From: a virus
Taxonomy: Duplodnaviria; Heunggongvirae; Uroviricota; Caudoviricetes
IMG/VR virus record: IMGVR_UViG_2693429524_000008
Length of the DNA stretch: 7,545 bases
Direction: 5' to 3' (one strand)
Shown one piece after another: positions 1,425 to 7,545 of the stretch. A model generated the notes under the pieces. It was not told the origin of the DNA. It saw only the letters and a list, made by a program, of their open reading frames with translations, and searched no databases. A program made the translations under genes and the position numbers. Each line of letters opens with the position of its first letter. The first letter of the stretch is position 1.

Positions 1425-1951
1425 TTGCGTAACTCCGATAACTCGTTAAAGCGTTCCATAAACATCCCGTAGGCATGGCCCGGTGCCAGTGGAATCACGT
1501 TGAACATCTCTGTTGCCGGGATACCTTCCAGTACAGGCCAGAAAGAGCCATCATCAAGCCCGAGATCGCGGCGTTCGGTTGCCAGCATGATGAGATCGGC
1601 ATATTTCACGGGCGTACTCATAACTGGGGGTAACCCGTATTTCTCACGGATTACGGCGTCTATTTTTTCTTCCATTTGTTTATAGTCAGGAAGAAGGCGT
1701 TTCAGTGGTGCGGGAATGTCCTGGCAATACGCTTCTGTTGCATCATGCATTAACGCTTCAAAAGCAAATTCCTGCGGCACCAACTGGCTGCAAAGAACCG
1801 CATGTTGGGCGACGCTGTAGAAGTGCGAAAGATGACCGGCAAAGCGACAGATATTTGAAAGGGAAACCGCGATATCGTTAATATCGATGTCGTCTTTATT
1901 TATCCTGTCATAATAAAAATGCTTCCCGGAAAAAGTTTTAATAAATGACAT
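1415..1951 (-). CDS. yfdR: HD-domain 5'-deoxynucleotidase, YfdR-like (YfbR family), 178 aa
   Basis: Within ORF 1415..1978; start placed at ATG 1949..1951 (MSFIKTFSGKHFYYD...) because of a GGAGAA Shine-Dalgarno 6 nt upstream. HD-domain metal-binding signature visible (H..H in HLSHFYSVAQH and HD in EALMHDATEAY). Length and N-terminus match my recollection of the CPS-53 prophage protein YfdR. Confidence 0.7.
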   Translation of the reverse strand: MSFIKTFSGKHFYYDRINKDDIDINDIAVSLSNICRFAGHLSHFYSVAQHAVLCSQLVPQEFAFEALMHDATEAYCQDIPAPLKRLLPDYKQMEEKIDAVIREKYGLPPVMSTPVKYADLIMLATERRDLGLDDGSFWPVLEGIPATEMFNVIPLAPGHAYGMFMERFNELSELRKCA

Positions 1952-2044
1952 TTTGTTCTCCACGTATATGCGCTGCACCGCGCTGAATTTTGGTTAAAGA
2001 AAACCCTCGCCATCAGGCGATTATTGAGTTAATTACGTTTCTAT

Positions 2045-2066
2045 AAATGCCCCCGCAGGGGCATTT
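2045..2066. other. GC-rich hairpin (9-bp stem AAATGCCCC / GGGGCATTT, 4-nt loop) in the yfdQ-like to yfdR-like intergenic spacer
   Basis: Perfect inverted repeat seen directly; no U-tract follows on either strand, so it is not a canonical intrinsic terminator. Confidence 0.4.
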
Positions 2067-2078
2067 GCAGTAATGAAA

Positions 2079-2903
2079 TCAGGCGGTGAAAGTACCAATA
2101 AAGGTTTCTACTTTGCTGTCTTTGAATTTTTCAACAAGCAGATTACGAAATTCGTTAGCCATTTCTTCCTGTACTGCTTCCAGCTGAATAATGCGCAGAA
2201 CCAGTACAGGGCGATCACCAGTGATAATGCTGAGGCGTAATTTAAACGGACGTTCTTTCAGGCCTTCAAACGGAACGCATTTAAACTCAAATGCTACTGG
2301 CATAATGTCTTTAGTTTTCGCTTCGACAGACTCCATCAGAGAGCGTTTGCCGCTGAAGTCATTGTCTTCAAAATCAGCGGTCTGGTTTGCTTCAATCGTG
2401 ATTTTACGGACCGCCGCAGCCGCTTTTGTTGCCTGAATGGCGTCACCATTAGCATCAAAGCCCACAAGGTAGTCGGCCCAGTCTTCAATCCATTCTGCCA
2501 GTGACTTCTGGGAGTTACGCTCGCCGTTAACAGACAACAGGGCAGAGAACGGTGCTGTCTTTTTCAGTTTGAGAGTGGCGGTGTTATCTGCGTGACCTGG
2601 TTCATCAATAGTACCCAGGTTAAGCACACTGACGGCTCGCATATTATCAGCATCGATAAAGCAGCGGGTGCTTTCATCTGCAAGATCTTTAGAATAACGG
2701 GTAAAGTCATCGATGCTGGCAGTGGAAAGCGCACCACGGAAACGGAAGCGATTTAAATTAAATTTTTCCAGATCATGAATGCGGAAATTCTCAGGCAATG
2801 CCACAGCATCGGCACCAATCTTACTGATAATTTCATTAACACCCTGAGCAGAAATAAGGGCATGGATTTGATTAATTTCGGTTGCGTCTAAGTTCTGAGA
2901 CAT
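2079..2903 (-). CDS. yfdQ: YfdQ-like DUF2303 family prophage protein, 274 aa
   Basis: Long clean ORF with a GAGGA Shine-Dalgarno 6 nt upstream of ATG 2901..2903. Sequence ([33 protein letters not shown]...) and length agree with my recollection of CPS-53 YfdQ; synteny between the YfdP-like and YfdR-like genes supports this. Confidence 0.65.
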
Positions 2904-2968
2904 AATAAGTCCTCACTATATAAAGATATTCAGTGATGAGATAAATAATCAGTTAATTAAGAACGATA

Positions 2969-3331
2969 TTAATGACCTGCTGCGCGGAGTTTTCCGTCAG
3001 GCTCACCGGCAAGAGTCAGTAATTGTCCCTGGTCTTCCTGCAGAATAGTCAGGCGACCACCGCGATTGACATACATCGGTGTTTCGGTGGTGTCTTCTTC
3101 GGAAATTTTCCCGCGGTTAGTCGGGCGAACATATGAGAGTTTGTGTTTGATTTTCACACGGTTCTCATCAAATGGTTCGATTTCCAGGTTGAGCGAGACC
3201 TTACCTTTGGTTTTCGTGTTCATCACACCGGAAGCGACTTCACTGAGAACTGCGCCGATTTTGGTTTCAAATACGCCGCCGTCCAGCTCCCCGATAAATG
3301 CCTGCACATCAGTACTGCGTTCGCTAGCCAT
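2969..3331 (-). CDS. yfdP: YfdP-like small prophage protein, 120 aa (the longer ORF to 3517 is probably upstream read-through)
   Basis: Start placed at ATG 3329..3331 (MASERSTDVQAFIGELDGG...) because AGGAG lies 7 nt upstream; the 62 codons above it are Cys/Arg/His-rich and not protein-like. Gene order P then Q then R on the minus strand matches the yfdP-yfdQ-yfdR order recalled for E. coli K-12 CPS-53. Confidence 0.5.
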   Translation of the reverse strand: MASERSTDVQAFIGELDGGVFETKIGAVLSEVASGVMNTKTKGKVSLNLEIEPFDENRVKIKHKLSYVRPTNRGKISEEDTTETPMYVNRGGRLTILQEDQGQLLTLAGEPDGKLRAAGH

Positions 3332-3379
3332 TTTGCTGCTCCTCATCATATCGACCCTGCAAGGTCGGTTAGTTTCTCC

Positions 3380-3468
3380 ACAAAACAGAGAAGAACACCT
3401 GCGGTGGCAGCCGCCCGGATGGATTGGGTTATGAGCCCGTCGTCCGGTGATGCTCTTCTCTGTTTTGT
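3380..3468. repeat. Long-range inverted repeat: 15-bp perfect arms (3380..3394 and 3454..3468) separated by 59 nt, in the untranslated leader upstream of the yfdP-like gene
   Basis: 3381..3394 CAAAACAGAGAAGA is the exact reverse complement of 3454..3467, with one further A/T pair at 3380/3468. Confidence 0.5.
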
Positions 3469-3946
3469 AAAAAGAGCGGTACCAGCCGGAAGCAAGTGTA
3501 CAAACTGGTACCGCCAAAGCAGTGGCTGTTGTGGTGACCGGTGCTGATCTCCGGCTTGCGGTTATTTCAGACTCTCACGGGCGTTTAATTGCCCCGCCGA
3601 ACAGCTCTTTTCCGCAATAGCTGCAATGTCTTTCGCGCATCAGTCTGCGCATTCACCACAACGCTGAGAGCACTTAGCCAGTTACGGCACCACACTTTGT
3701 CGCGGTTCCATAAATGCCCTCATCGTTGCACCCTGGTCTCTTCCCAGGCGTCAAACCGAATCGCCACGCTGGTTAGGCGTCTTATCAGCATCATCATTGA
3801 CTTGCACATTCCGGCTACCTGGTTTGTTTGCTCGAGCAAGGAGTGGATTGTCCCCTTTAACGTCACCAGACCGCTAACGACGCATGTGCCATACGCCGTG
3901 TTACAACCAAATTTTGTTTTAATCTTGCCTGTGTTATGTTTCTTTT

Positions 3947-3980
3947 AGATACATTGTGTATCTCATGGATACATTGTCAA
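3947..3980 (-). promoter_or_regulatory. Candidate leftward early promoter (pL-like) with overlapping operator: minus-strand -35 TTGACA (3975..3980), 16-nt spacer, -10 CACAAT (3953..3958); perfect 17-bp palindrome AGATACA-TTG-TGTATCT (3947..3963) plus a second GATACATTG half-site copy (3968..3976)
   Basis: Consensus -35 hexamer and palindrome seen directly; the -10 is weak (lacks the first T). Position immediately downstream of the repressor terminator and upstream of the leftward gene block fits an oL/pL arrangement. Confidence 0.4.
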
Positions 3981-3983
3981 GTA

Positions 3984-4006
3984 TAAAAAAACCTGCCGAA
4001 GCAGGT
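3984..4006 (-). terminator. Rho-independent terminator for the repressor gene (minus-strand RNA: ACCUGC-UUCG-GCAGGU followed by a U-tract)
   Basis: 6-bp perfect stem (3991..3996 / 4001..4006) with a UUCG tetraloop, followed on the minus strand by a run of six to seven T (3984..3990), beginning 13 nt after the repressor stop codon (4020..4022). Confidence 0.7.
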
Positions 4007-4019
4007 TCATAAATATTGA

Positions 4020-4694
4020 TTAGGCCTTTATTGTGTATCTTCTTGGTTTTCCCGAGAAAATCACTGTACCAATTATAGAGCAATTACCGTTAATCTTAAT
4101 GTAAGGCTCAGGCCAGTTTGGGTTTAATGCTTTGAGATAACGCTGTGTTCCATCTTCTATCAATCGCTTGAAGGTGGTTTCGCCTGTATCGTGCATCAAT
4201 GCAATAACGTCGTCACCGTGGCAGGCAGGGACTTCGGGATCAACAAAAATCATGTCTCCAGGGCGGTACTCATCAATCATTGAATCACCAATCACCCGCA
4301 AGATATAAGTCATTTCGCCACAGGGTACAGGGCAGGGATACGTTTCTGCTGTGCTCAAATCAACCTCAGAATAGCCAACTTCTTTCCATGCTCCGGCCTG
4401 TACCCATGATATGACAGGGACTAACGTTATTTGTTTGTTAGTGATTGAAACATCAGGTTTTTTTGTGATGTTCGTTGTCTGGTGTTCTTGATCAAGCCAT
4501 CCGACAGGCAGGTCGAAACATTTTTCGATGTGCCGTGCCATGCTGTCACCGATATTTTTAGTAGCGCCATCCCCCATAAACCTGCTGGTCTGGGTTGGCT
4601 CGCGATCAATCATGGTGGCAAAGGATGAATTTCCGCCAACACCATCTCTCAGTTTTCTGGCGTTAGACCGCCGGATGTCATGGATTGTTTTCAT
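4020..4694 (-). CDS. CI-like prophage repressor: N-terminal HTH domain plus C-terminal S24 (LexA/UmuD-like) autopeptidase domain, 224 aa
   Basis: C-terminal half carries the S24 signature: putative Ala-Gly cleavage site (VQAGAW), Ser nucleophile in VIGDSM and Lys in TFKRL. Divergently oriented to a Cro-like gene across an operator-bearing spacer. Confidence 0.8.
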   Translation of the reverse strand: MKTIHDIRRSNARKLRDGVGGNSSFATMIDREPTQTSRFMGDGATKNIGDSMARHIEKCFDLPVGWLDQEHQTTNITKKPDVSITNKQITLVPVISWVQAGAWKEVGYSEVDLSTAETYPCPVPCGEMTYILRVIGDSMIDEYRPGDMIFVDPEVPACHGDDVIALMHDTGETTFKRLIEDGTQRYLKALNPNWPEPYIKINGNCSIIGTVIFSGKPRRYTIKA

Positions 4695-4710
4695 AACGAA
4701 ATTAAAACCT

Positions 4711-4780
4711 TTGTACCGATAAGGTACAAGTATCTTGAGGGTTCATTTCAATCATGTAATATGTATACCGTAGGTACATA
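4711..4780. promoter_or_regulatory. Immunity-region operator/promoter cluster: perfect 19-bp palindrome TTGTACC-GATAA-GGTACAA (4711..4729), imperfect palindrome TGTATACC-GTA-GGTACATA (4762..4780), and a rightward promoter -35 TTGAGG (4735..4740) / -10 TAATAT (4757..4762)
   Basis: Palindromes and hexamers read directly from the 90-bp spacer between the divergent repressor (start 4694) and cro-like (start 4785) genes; the second palindrome overlaps the -10 and predicted transcription start. Confidence 0.5.
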
Positions 4781-4784
4781 TTGT

Positions 4785-4985
4785 ATGAAAGCGTACTGGG
4801 ACTCTTTAACCAAAGAACAGCAGGGCGAGTTGGCCGGAAAAGTTGGCTCAACACCTGGCTACTTACGGCTGGTTTTCAATGGTTATAAAAAAGCCAGTTT
4901 TGTGCTGGCTAAAAAACTTGAGCAATGCACGTCAGGTGCAATTACGAAATCTGACTTAAGACCGGATATCTATCCGAAAGATTAA
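4785..4985 (+). CDS. Cro-like HTH regulator (YdaS/DUF1019-type), 66 aa
   Basis: Within ORF 4680..4985; start placed at ATG 4785 (MKAYWDSLTKEQQGELAGKVGSTPGYLRLVFNGYKKASFVLAKKLEQCTSGAITKSDLRPDIYPKD) because the upstream part of the ORF overlaps the promoter/operators. An HTH followed by the DLRPDI motif is characteristic of YdaS-type Cro proteins. Confidence 0.6.
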   Translation: MKAYWDSLTKEQQGELAGKVGSTPGYLRLVFNGYKKASFVLAKKLEQCTSGAITKSDLRPDIYPKD

Positions 4986-5016
4986 CAGAACACCTTCAAT
5001 TTTTAACCACAGAACG

Positions 5017-5580
5017 ATGAGGCTAACCGTGGGTAAGCATCACTGGAAAGTAGAAAAACAGCCTGAGTGGTACGTGAAAGCTGTCAGAAAAACTATCGCA
5101 GCGTTGCCGGGTGGTTACGCTGAAGCAGCTGACTGGCTGGATGTAACAGAGAACGCATTATTTAACCGCCTTCGTGCCTATGGCGATCAGATTTTCCCGC
5201 TGGGATGGGCAATGGTTTTACAGCGCGCGGCTGGCACTCACTACATTGCGGATGCTGTCGCACAGTCTGCTGGTGGGGTGTTCGTATCGCTTCCTGAAAT
5301 TGAGGAAGTAGAGAACGCCGATATAAACCAGCGCCTGCTGGAAGTCATTGAACAGATCGGCAGTTATTCAAAACAGATTCGTTCAGCAATTGAAGACGGT
5401 GTAGTGGAACCGAATGAGAAGACAGCAATTAACGACGAGCTGTACCTCTCAATTTCGAAGCTGCAGGAGCATGCAGCACTGGTCTACAAAATTTTTTGCA
5501 TTTCAGAAAGTAATGACGCCCGCGAGTGTGCAGCTCCGGGCGCCGTGGCGTGTCGTGACTGTGGAGAAACTAACGCATGA
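5017..5580 (+). CDS. CII-like phage regulatory protein (CP76-type), 187 aa; possible alternative GTG start at 5029 with a GAGG Shine-Dalgarno
   Basis: Position directly after cro; sequence features (WYVKAV..., [37 protein letters not shown]...) match my recollection of the enterobacterial phage CII/CP76 family. Its stop overlaps the next ATG as ATGA (5577..5580). Confidence 0.55.
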
Positions 5581-5915
5581 ACAGTTTAACAACACACTAC
5601 CGTCGCTCGCAACTGATTGCGCTTCCTGTACCGGGTGGAAAAGCGAAGGTGGAGTATTGCTATGCAGTAAATGTACCAGGTGACAGGGAAATTGTAACCC
5701 ACAGCTTTGCAGAGTGGGCTGTGGGTGATTTCAACCGGCAGAAGGAGACAGTCCTTTGCGACAAGTTAACCGCTGGTTCAAAGATCACTACGGAGTGCCC
5801 GTCAGAGTCATTCGTTGGGAGCCGGAAACACAACGGGTTATCTACCTCCGCGAAGGCTATGAGCATGAGTGCTTCAGCCCGCTCGAACAGTTTCGTCGTA
5901 AATTCAGGGAAGTAG
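5577..5915 (+). CDS. Hypothetical ORF, 112 aa; only the N-terminal half looks protein-like, and coding signal moves to another frame from about 5730 (possible frameshifted gene)
   Basis: ATG overlaps the CII-like stop (ATGA). The C-terminal 50 residues are Ser/Ala-rich and low-complexity, while an overlapping frame is clearly protein-like over 5729..5935. Confidence 0.3.
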
Positions 5916-5935
5916 AGGTCGGTCATGAGCACTAA
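5756..5935 (+). CDS. Small hypothetical protein, 59 codons, TTG start (absent from the ATG-only ORF track); alternatively the C-terminal part of a frameshifted gene that begins at 5577
   Basis: Protein-like translation [59 protein letters not shown]; strong Shine-Dalgarno AAGGAG (5742..5747) 8 nt upstream of TTG 5756; the stop (5933..5935) overlaps the next gene's start. Confidence 0.3.
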
Positions 5936-6263
5936 ATTAACCGGCTATGTATGGGATGGTTGCGCTGCATCAGGCATGAAATTATCCAGCGTGGCAATTA
6001 TGGCCCGCCTGGCTGATTTCAGTAATGACGAAGGTGTGTGCTGGCCATCAATTGAAACCATTGCCCGTCAGATTGGCGCGGGGATGAGTACCGTCAGAAC
6101 GGCTATCGCACGGCTGGAAGCAGAAGGCTGGTTAACGCGTAAGGCGCGTCGCCAGGGTAACCGCAATGCGTCGAATGTTTATCAGCTTAACGTTGCGAAG
6201 CTTCAGGCAGCGGCATTTTCTCAACTGTCAGATTCTGACCCGTCAAAATTTCTTACCTGCTGA
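5925..6263 (+). CDS. Winged-helix (HTH_36-like) replication-initiator-type N-terminal domain protein, 112 aa; possibly the 5' remnant of a longer O-like replication gene
   Basis: AGAGG Shine-Dalgarno 6 nt upstream of ATG 5925. Motif ...DEGVCWPSIETIARQIGAGMSTVRTAIARLEAEGWLTRKARRQGNRNASNVYQLN is typical of the HTH domain at the N-terminus of phage replication-initiation proteins. Followed by about 290 bp without a convincing ORF. Confidence 0.55.
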   Translation: MSTKLTGYVWDGCAASGMKLSSVAIMARLADFSNDEGVCWPSIETIARQIGAGMSTVRTAIARLEAEGWLTRKARRQGNRNASNVYQLNVAKLQAAAFSQLSDSDPSKFLTC

Positions 6264-6555
6264 CAAGTGGGTAACGCCACGCATGATGACGAGAACTACC
6301 GGAGTAAGCGAAGCCAGGTGCCAGTTAATACTGACTCAGTTAGTTCTGGCGGGTCTGGCGAAGGATAACGGCGGGTACGGGAATAAATTCAGACGCTGCC
6401 AGTAATGGCGGTTTCCTGCTGTGAAAATGGGCGGCTGGTGGGTGTTGGTAGCACCTGCCAGCCATTCGCTCATGCTTACTGGTCACAAGCGAACCACGGC
6501 CCACTGCTTTAGCGCAAAAGCAGAGTGAGCCTACCAGAGTTACGCTTACTGATCC

Positions 6556-7437
6556 ATGAAAAATACTGTAAAAATAAACAGTATTGATTTAATCAACGCT
6601 GATTGCCTGCATTTTATTCAGTCCCTGCCTGATGATTCCATTGACCTGATTGTTACCGATCCGCCTTACTTCAAGGTGAAACCTAACGGTTGGGACAATC
6701 AGTGGAAAGGGGACGAAGATTACCTTAAGTGGCTGGACCACTGTCTGGCCCAGTTCTGGCGGGTGTTAAAACCTGCCGGAAGCCTTTACCTGTTCTGTGG
6801 GCATCGCCTGGCATCTGATATTGAGATCATGATGCGTGAACGTTTCAACGTGCTTAACCATATCATCTGGGCGAAGCCGTCCGGACGTTGGAATGGGTGT
6901 AATAAAGAAAGTCTGCGCGCATATTTTCCTGCCACAGAGCGCGTTCTGTTTGCTGAACATTACCAGGGGCCATATCGCGGCAAAAGTGACGGCTATGCAG
7001 CAAAAGAAAGGGAACTCAAACAGCACATAATGGCACCGCTGATATCGTATTTCAGGGATGCTCGTGCCGAACTGGGTATAACGGCAAAACAAATTGCCGA
7101 AGCCACAGGTAAGAAAAATATGGTTTCCCACTGGTTTGGTGCCAGTCAGTGGCAGTTGCCGAATGAGGCTGACTATCGGAAGTTACAGGCACTGTTTTCC
7201 CGTATAGCGGCAGAGAAGTTTCAGGAACAACAACTGGAACAACCACACCACCAGCTGGTGGCATCTTATGATTCACTGAATCGCAAATATTCTGAATTGC
7301 TGGATGAGTTTAAATCTCTCCGGCGCTATTTCTCCGTATCAGTCTCCGTGCCTTATACCGATGTCTGGATGCATAAACCCGTTCAGTTCTACCCGGGTAA
7401 ACATCCGTGTGAGAAACCGGCGGATATGCTCAGGTGA
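6556..7437 (+). pseudogene. N6-adenine DNA methyltransferase (beta-class, phage Dam-like), 3'-truncated at the IS junction (methyltransferase-derived part 6556..7434)
   Basis: Catalytic motif IV, IVTDPPYF, near the N-terminus; the ORF ends ...YPGKHPCEKPADMLR-stop, six residues after the HP-x-x-KP motif that normally precedes the C-terminal AdoMet-binding motif (DPF-x-GSGTT type), which is missing. The TGA stop (7435..7437) is the first three bases of the IS terminal repeat. Confidence 0.75.
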
Positions 7438-7545
7438 ACCGCCCCGGGTTTCCTGGAGAGTGTTTTATCTGTGAACTCAGGCTGCCAGATCATCGTTTCC
7501 GATGGAAGCATAATAAGCTTTTTCTGCTTCTGCCGGAGGAGTATG
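7435..7545 (-). mobile_element. 3' terminal fragment of a second IS3-family (IS629/IS1203-like) copy in inverted orientation: right terminal inverted repeat starting TGAACC at 7435, transposase C-terminus on the minus strand (7477..7545)
   Basis: Exact reverse complement of 1..111; same reasoning as for the left-hand fragment. Confidence 0.6.

Follow-up and report, generated by a model that had tools for sequence, protein, structure and literature searches.

The question raised by this locus is why a phage replication-initiator gene should lose most of its length and be followed by a stretch of DNA that encodes nothing convincing. The locus occupies positions 5925-6555 of a 7,545-nucleotide (nt) stretch of viral DNA (Caudoviricetes; IMG/VR record IMGVR_UViG_2693429524_000008), hereafter the window, and it ends directly before a DNA methylase gene. 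A preliminary description, made from the letters alone, took the locus for one O-like gene broken by frameshift or decay, whose second half would continue in another frame and whose spacer would hold the remains of iteron-type origin sites. Our analysis points, with high confidence, to a different history, in which 5925-6555 is a deletion scar joining the stump of an initiator gene to a late-region module, and in which the spacer is a native structured RNA element, most consistent with an antisense RNA; a lock on the methylase, of which the element, a LexA-type site and a hairpin would be parts, can be inferred in addition.

The open reading frame (ORF) at 5925-6263 starts with ATG and encodes 112 amino acids (aa) with the described helix-turn-helix fold, which matches the winged-helix domain HTH_36 over residues 23-70 (E 7e-12). 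Its first 108 codons (5925-6249, plus strand), which hold the DNA-binding domain of an O-like replication initiator, are 99% identical to the part of phage SfIV that encodes residues 1-108 of the 313-aa protein gp41, and they match likewise the 5' end of the homologue in Escherichia coli MEI008. Genes of this type, found in SfIV and in many E. coli prophages, are labelled 'replication/primosomal protein' and encode 313 aa. Along its whole length, gp41 matches phrog_391, 'replication initiation O-like' (E 1.6e-135); at E<=0.1 no match to Pfam Phage_rep_O was obtained with the stump or with full-length gp41, HTH_36 being the best match, and the gp41-type initiator is thus a protein that works like O and is not filed in the lambda O family. 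Residues 109-313 of gp41, the C-terminal two thirds, are missing from the window, in which the residues that follow position 108 in gp41 (SDASKSDPSK...) are not present; translation against gp41 and base-level alignment show that the stump ends in an out-of-frame tail, FLTC plus a stop codon (6250-6263, plus strand), added to it by the fusion. With homologues of 313 aa against 112 codons in the window, the truncation noted in the preliminary description is real, and a standalone 112-aa protein was looked for in homologous phages and not found, since the intact relatives encode 313 aa. The Prokaryotic Genome Annotation Pipeline (PGAP) calls the same ORF in strain Z1323CEC0019 a pseudogene 'missing C-terminus'. 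The appropriate annotation for the stump is an initiator truncated by deletion, not a frameshifted gene.

The break in homology lies at 6248/6249, a point that had been passed over before. When positions 5800-6700 were used as query in BLASTN and megablast, complemented by base-level alignment, the query split there into a left part, matching the SfIV-type initiator gene, and a right part, matching a late-region module that is 99% identical to the 'hypothetical protein' and 'DNA methylase' genes of cdtI, mEp460, Ayreon and Stx2c phages. Alignments with the left parent run up to 6249 and those with the right parent begin at 6248, so the junction (6248-6249, no strand assigned) consists of a 2-base-pair (bp) 'AT' common to both parents. 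In letters, the window reads CCGTCAAAAT joined to TTCTTACC, where SfIV goes on AAAATCTGACG and cdtI has CTTCATTTCTTACC, only 'AT' being common. The order in intact phages is initiator, PerC-like, LexA-like, RusA, KilA-N, DUF968/HNH, Q, a moron on the opposite strand, a small ORF, a spacer of about 150 nt, the methylase, holin, lysozyme and Rz. Both parts of the window lie on E. coli MEI008, window 1432-6249 corresponding to L290 6633-11450 and window 6420-7431 to L290 16950-17961, and from these alignment coordinates about 5.3 kb are missing from the window.

Comparison with the intact relatives shows a deletion and a fusion, the steps of which can be reconstructed as follows. A single illegitimate deletion of about 5.3 kb at 2 bp of microhomology took away the last two thirds of the initiator with almost the whole of an intragenic array of 15-bp iterons, as well as the PerC-like, LexA-like, RusA, KilA-N and DUF968/HNH genes, the antiterminator Q along with its late promoter, a moron, and the first ~24 codons of the small winged-helix ORF; the stump, 108 codons plus FLTC, was fused in this way to the 3' end of the small ORF. 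One fact weighs against this account: no single molecule was found that carries both this initiator and this allele of the small ORF, as the exact ancestor would. MEI008 comes closest, and the size of the deletion is for this reason an estimate from a close relative. Among 5426 complete E. coli genomes, one has the same junction, and PGAP annotates the ORF there as a pseudogene. At least 24 draft contigs share both the junction and the truncated protein, and since the methylase is full-length there, accompanied by lysis genes and a truncated terminase, the deletion predates the insertion sequence (IS) that interrupts the methylase of the window. The degradation of the gene is real and also ordinary, a deletion scar in an IS-ridden prophage remnant.

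What lies to the right of the junction is a different gene. Positions 6250-6405 (plus strand) are the 3' end of a small winged-helix ORF of 64-75 aa, of which the last 51 codons and the stop remain, the start and the first ~24 codons being deleted, and they are 99% identical to orf55 of phage cdtI (L002 3931-4158, 75 aa). The small ORF matches phrog_331, of unknown function (E 7e-26), and its full-length homologues give weak, sub-threshold matches to TrmB, MarR_2 and DprA_WH. The second peptide of the preliminary description, MMTRTTGV...RRCQ at 6283-6405, does lie in another frame and is winged-helix-like according to these same weak matches; it represents the last 40 residues of the cdtI orf55-type small ORF, a separate gene of the late region. 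A hairpin can be read from the sequence across the stop of this ORF (CTGCCA-GTAA-TGGCGG followed by TTTCC; 6396-6416, plus strand), which is weak in the window and was not called there by a terminator scan; the same site in relatives carries CCTTCAGCAATGAAGG or CCTCGCTTCGGCGGGG, each followed by TTTTT, and looks like a terminator.

The stretch beyond the small ORF was correctly described as lacking a convincing ORF, since the short ORFs in 6406-6555 are broken in relatives by indels that are not multiples of three. Small ORFs at 6405-6512 and 6421-6528, and on the minus strand at 6336-6473 and 6340-6504, were considered and rejected on 1-nt indels in the conserved block of the relatives, and these indels rule out coding. 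Every intact relative has 138-153 nt between the small ORF and the methylase, and the spacer is recognizable even where the small ORF is replaced or absent, as in Citrobacter phiNP, Flotzy, Klebsiella, Providencia, Morganella and Hafnia. The left edge of the element described below, 6420 or 6399, is exactly where homology to the window sets in for many relatives. The spacer is therefore not debris; it is the native upstream region of an M.EcoGII-family methylase. A search of viral contigs for related loci, anchored on the methylase, returned near-identical copies only.

Within this spacer, positions 6421-6540 very likely form a conserved structured RNA, as judged from comparative sequence analysis. 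Relatives were gathered by a DNA-pattern search of viral contigs and by a methylase-profile search, with one genome per species, and a covariance model was built on four helices, P1 to P4. The model places the element beside a methylase in 74 loci from Enterobacterales, Morganellaceae, Vibrio and Gilliamella. Given in plus-strand coordinates, P1 pairs 6428-6432 with 6499-6503, P2 pairs 6433-6444 with 6452-6463, P3 pairs 6465-6474 with 6484-6493 and P4 pairs 6504-6510 with 6517-6523; P1, which reaches 7 bp on the minus strand, closes a three-way junction with P2 and P3, and P4 stands beside it as a hairpin. In the plus-strand alignment 26 of 34 pairs show compensatory changes, which amount to 150 cells against 40.6+-5.1 in shuffles. 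An independent minus-strand alignment made with MAFFT has 94.2% of cells paired and compensatory changes at 14 of 29 pairs; there, G.U pairs extend P1 to 7 bp with 98.4% of cells paired, while P3 reaches 96.9% and P2 92.7%. An alternative helix, GGCUCA/UGGGCC (6498-6503 with 6526-6531, plus-strand coordinates), encloses P4, competes with P1 and covaries as well, changing from GC to AU in 7 sequences, and two conformations of the element are possible. A pseudoknot between loop L2 and J3/1 (UUGGU/ACCAA) was rejected, because by eye it is not maintained in relatives, and a mutual-information scan gave no convincing extra pairs. The first plus-strand consensus from RNAalifold contained AUGGGC/GCUCAU as a possible alternative pairing.

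No known family accounts for the element. Rfam 15, searched at relaxed thresholds with 221 nt (6380-6600), gave no family match, the best having E 3.4 and 12.4 bits against a gathering score of 44.2; a search for tRNA and tmRNA found none, and a full-text literature search for the sequence of the element returned nothing relevant. Two further loci show unusual arrangements: in one viral contig (L155, minus strand) the P2 signature appears twice, at 383-421 and 3369-3407, some 3 kb apart, and in another (L108, 2134-2285) the element runs straight into the C-terminal part of a methylase, which looks like an internal deletion.

Structures of this kind can be read on either strand, and the choice between them decides what the element would do. 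If it acted on the plus strand, it would be the 5' leader of the methylase mRNA, subject to translational control by a bound protein or ligand like the Com-dependent control of mom in phage Mu, and there would be no antisense RNA. This is the main rival to an antisense RNA, and we regard it as unlikely, even though the element does sit in a 5' untranslated region on the path of late transcription, the methylase has no obvious Shine-Dalgarno sequence, the plus-strand structure too exceeds its controls, and a gene for a Com-like translational regulator lies between the element and the methylase in Vibrio and Shewanella. P1-P4 had initially been assigned to the plus strand; the helices were kept and the strand was revised on the counts of A.C and G.U and on the z-scores. 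On the same helices, 226 cells are A.C/C.A on the plus strand against 61 that are G.U/U.G, so that 81.9% of cells are paired on the plus strand and about 88.7% on the minus strand. Of 72 sequences, 65 have the lower minimum free energy on the minus strand, RNAalifold gives -73.0 for the minus strand against -62.8 for the plus strand, and the composition-corrected mean z-score is -4.28 against -2.86. The most divergent members, from Vibrio and Gilliamella, have plus-strand z-scores of about -0.2 to -1.1, near random, and in P3 of Vibrio three A.C mismatches in 10 bp on the plus strand become G.U pairs on the minus strand.

A number of observations weigh against the minus strand and against a single fold. 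In P2, G.U cells on the plus strand (about 46) outnumber A.C cells, which makes the signal differ from helix to helix, and the copy in the window itself, as well as that of phiP27, folds slightly better on the plus strand. On the minus strand a weak promoter, TTAAAT-16-TACAGT, is readable and was not called by the promoter scan, and no canonical terminator was seen. P1 and the alternative helix compete, each with some covariation support. Taken together, the minus strand is favored, not proven, for the element, whose RNA would then be antisense to the leader of the methylase, and the most probable role is that of an antisense RNA over the methylase leader and start region.

On either strand, conservation might merely reflect recent horizontal travel of the spacer with the methylase, the structure being functionless; many E. 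coli copies are indeed 99% identical, and related sequences can beat shuffle controls without any structure. We consider this very improbable. At 60-75% nucleotide identity the element can still be followed across families and orders, and the conservation of the spacer extends from E. coli to Vibrio. Controls with slid partners, in which relatedness is kept, yield at most 36 compensatory cells against the 150 observed. Each of the four helices shows double compensatory changes, one pair of P3 appearing as CG in 26, UA in 16 and AU in 13 sequences, that is, with three Watson-Crick types, and indels concentrate in the loops.

The gene that follows the element gives a reason to expect tight control. 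Positions 6556-7434 (plus strand) encode a beta-class N6-adenine DNA methylase of the M.EcoGII/M.EcoGI family (PF01555, E 1.6e-19), cut after codon 293 of 350 by the end of an IS1203 element. Its relatives have 350 aa and the motifs TDPPYF, the DPPY motif at the N-terminal side, and FFMGSGS, the FxGxG motif at the C-terminal side; the latter is absent from the window protein because IS1203 cuts it at 7434. The window protein shares with M.EcoGII and M.EcoGI the beta-class motif order DPPY ... FxGxG, a length of ~350 aa in the family and a prophage site before lysis or stx genes; it differs in its truncation by IS1203. It is 81% identical to the methylase of phage 1720a-02. The 1720a-02 enzyme was named as very similar to the non-specific adenine methylase M.EcoGII, which is silent in lysogens and harmful if constitutively expressed; the same paper describes no upstream RNA element and no LexA site (PMC5778455).

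Over codons 3-9 of the methylase lies a LexA-box-like palindrome, TACTGTAAAAATAAACAGTA (6564-6583, no strand assigned), which agrees with TACTG(TA)5CAGTA at 17 of 20 positions, where none of 200 shuffles gives a match. CTGT-N8-ACAG stands at the same position in 37 of 80 species loci, across genera and even where the amino acids differ, and in 12 Vibrio-type loci it is found about 170-200 nt upstream; codons 2-10 of the methylase show only about a third of the synonymous variation seen further in (0.29 against 0.81). By its match and its conserved position, 6564-6583 is a putative LexA (SOS) operator, and against this it must be said that the signal could partly reflect codon bias in the start region. 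The element, the LexA-box-like site and the upstream terminator-like hairpin probably belong to a multilayer lock, whose effect would be to hold a potentially toxic methylase silent in lysogenic cells and to time its expression at induction. Probably several layers restrain the methylase, with the RNA element as one of them, as far as such control can be inferred from conserved features. In its most complete form the proposal remains tentative, and we hold it with less than even confidence: an undescribed RNA family of ~120 nt, with a three-way junction and a hairpin, would be antisense to the leader of genes for M.EcoGII-type non-specific adenine methylases from Enterobacterales to Vibrionaceae and, with a LexA operator over the first methylase codons, would act as an SOS-coupled lock on a genome-wide methylase, closed in lysogens and released at induction.

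Cis-antisense RNAs that silence toxic or SOS-linked genes include SymR/symE, IstR-1/tisB, Sok/hok and sar/ant of phage P22. The element resembles them as a structured RNA apparently opposite the 5' leader of a gene that is harmful if uncontrolled, with a LexA box in the same locus. Unlike them, it is larger and more elaborate, a three-way junction of ~120 nt, and its transcript is predicted; moreover, the LexA box lies here inside the target ORF and would overlap the putative antisense promoter, not the promoter of the target, and no sequence or Rfam relationship to these RNAs was found. Some small RNAs are known from the same general neighborhood, downstream of Q and PR': StxS is a PR'-tR' transcript (PMC7547250), and AgvB and AsxR are RNAs of 51-60 nt located 3' of moron genes (PMC4104026). 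Identity of the element with StxS or with AgvB/AsxR was considered and rejected on position and size, as the element has ~120 nt and lies before the methylase.

Other possible control systems appear among distant methylase relatives. Zinc-ribbon ORFs like Com of Mu, which is the translational activator of mom, lie directly 5' of the methylase in Vibrio and Shewanella relatives (L271-L273, L285, L281 and L283); they match PF10122 (33.3 bits for L281) and phrog_6417, 'translational regulator'. This arrangement is like com-mom of Mu, whereas the window and its enterobacterial relatives have no com-like ORF, and the methylase is unrelated to Mom. Methylase homologues of Vibrio, Aliivibrio and Psychromonas carry another conserved leader, composed of AUGCCUUGAGUACCUGAGACCCA...UGGAGAGGAAGCA, a GC-rich hairpin and UUCAAGGCUCU, located about 60-200 nt 5' of the methylase (L274, L276-L280, L282, L284 and L286-L288) and preceded by a CTGT-N8-ACAG box; this Vibrio-type leader may be a second structured leader. 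In L272 and L273 the 5' part of this second leader stands in tandem with the element.

It remains to say where the origin was and what the repeat of the spacer is. The origin of lambda lies inside the O gene, and the arrangement of gp41 mirrors that. In gp41 of SfIV, Tandem Repeats Finder detected 4.3 tandem copies of TCTGACCCGTCAAAA with a period of 15 (score 86-100; L001 4435-4498), and a repeat search found 5-6 copies including dispersed ones (L001 4414-4575). The array begins just past codon ~101 and encodes a low-complexity linker, SDSDPSKSDASKSDPSKFDASKS... Comparison with intact relatives, suggested earlier as a way of locating the origin, thus leads to a 15-bp array inside the initiator gene, which we take to be the real, putative, origin iterons, presumably bound by the initiator. 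Because the breakpoint falls past the first repeat copy, only one survives in the window, GTCAGATTCTGACCCGTCAAAAT at 6227-6249 (plus strand; equal to L001 4428-4450), and the stump keeps its DNA-binding domain with the origin and the C-terminal domain gone. As in the lambda O-type initiator, gp41 consists of an N-terminal winged helix, a low-complexity linker encoded by direct repeats (the putative iterons) and a C-terminal domain; unlike the lambda case, no P, DnaC or DnaB-type gene follows the gp41-type gene in relatives, and the window retains only the first 108 codons and one iteron.

The 11-bp direct repeat with one mismatch reported from the spacer does exist, as GCTTACTGGTC at 6474-6484 and GCTTACTGATC at 6544-6554 (plus strand). 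The first copy corresponds to the variable apical loop of helix P3, the sequence of which differs in relatives, and the second lies directly 5' of the methylase ATG. An 11-mer pair with at most one mismatch arises in 6% of dinucleotide shuffles of the 150-nt spacer and in ~76% of shuffles of the whole 631 nt of 5925-6555, where the real sequence holds two such pairs; a repeat search of 5900-6600 gave five comparable two-copy families. The pair is not kept as a repeat in phiP27, Hafnia, Providencia or other relatives, it consists of two copies only, 70 bp apart, where iterons would number three or more, regularly spaced in phase with the helix, and in intact phages the spacer belongs to the late region beyond Q, some 5 kb away from the initiator gene. 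With so few copies, a frequency expected by chance, no conservation and a place among the late genes, the pair does not qualify as a remnant of iterons; the repeat is incidental, one copy being in a variable loop and the other beside a start codon. The model of a single gene broken by frameshift, to which the truncated ORF, the winged-helix-like peptide in another frame and the repeat had lent some appeal, is refuted by these comparisons and keeps practically no credence, since its halves match different genes in different phages (phrog_391 and phrog_331) on the two sides of 6248/6249 and no protein homologue covers both frames, the sequence right of 6248 is that of the post-Q module of intact phages, the gp41 residues beyond 108 are missing, the true iterons differ in sequence and sit inside the gene, and the spacer repeat is neither above chance nor conserved.

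The wider setting is that of a decayed lambdoid prophage, like CPS-53, e14 and SfIV, whose early region lies between IS ends. The window is the entire draft contig CYFD01000103.1 (GCA_001284405.1), and both of its ends are collapsed IS copies, another feature absent from the preliminary description. Positions 1-116 (no strand assigned) belong to an IS element of the IS1203/IS629 type, whose end here cuts the integrase gene and matches the IS1203 3' end in L003 (15024-15138) at 99%; positions 7435-7545 (no strand assigned) are an inverted copy of the same IS1203 end, which cuts the methylase and is a 100% reversed match to L003 15024-15134. Between them the early region comprises yfdP/Q/R-like genes, a LexA-family repressor, a YdaS-type Cro, a CII-like gene and a DUF4222 ORF, followed by the 112-codon ORF. 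Both int and the methylase are thus cut by IS1203, and the earlier opinion that the prophage is defective for replication and excision stands, as the origin, most of the initiator, Q and parts of the integrase and the methylase are gone; with the loss of the origin, most of the initiator and Q, it can neither replicate nor run late transcription.

Three other places in the window may be mentioned. At 5577-5935 two overlapping ORFs in different frames each have family matches: the whole of the ORF at 5577-5915 aligns with phrog_1170 and its first 63 aa also with phrog_20047, and the ORF at 5756-5935 matches Pfam DUF4222 (E 5e-19). Annotations differ in their choice between the two (gp40 of SfIV and PGAP), and the overlap could be a mis-annotation, a pair of overlapping genes or a frameshift. 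At 1908-2087 (minus strand) there is a sub-threshold Rfam match to the small RNA STnc100 (21 bits against a gathering score of 47, E 0.29), which spans the start of the yfdR-like gene and the intergenic region upstream of it. Finally, ~690 nt at 3332-4019, between the yfdP-like gene and the repressor gene, contain no convincing ORF; the SfIV annotation has two hypothetical ORFs there.

M.EcoGII-type enzymes are widely used as chromatin-footprinting tools and are common in lambdoid and Stx phages. A structured RNA and a LexA site at the 5' end of the gene would provide a concrete, testable mechanism of control, and the element is a candidate new RNA family for Rfam. Since the module lies just upstream of the stx genes in several Stx phages (phiP27 and 1720a-02 among them), factors that act on transcripts there could also bear on toxin expression.

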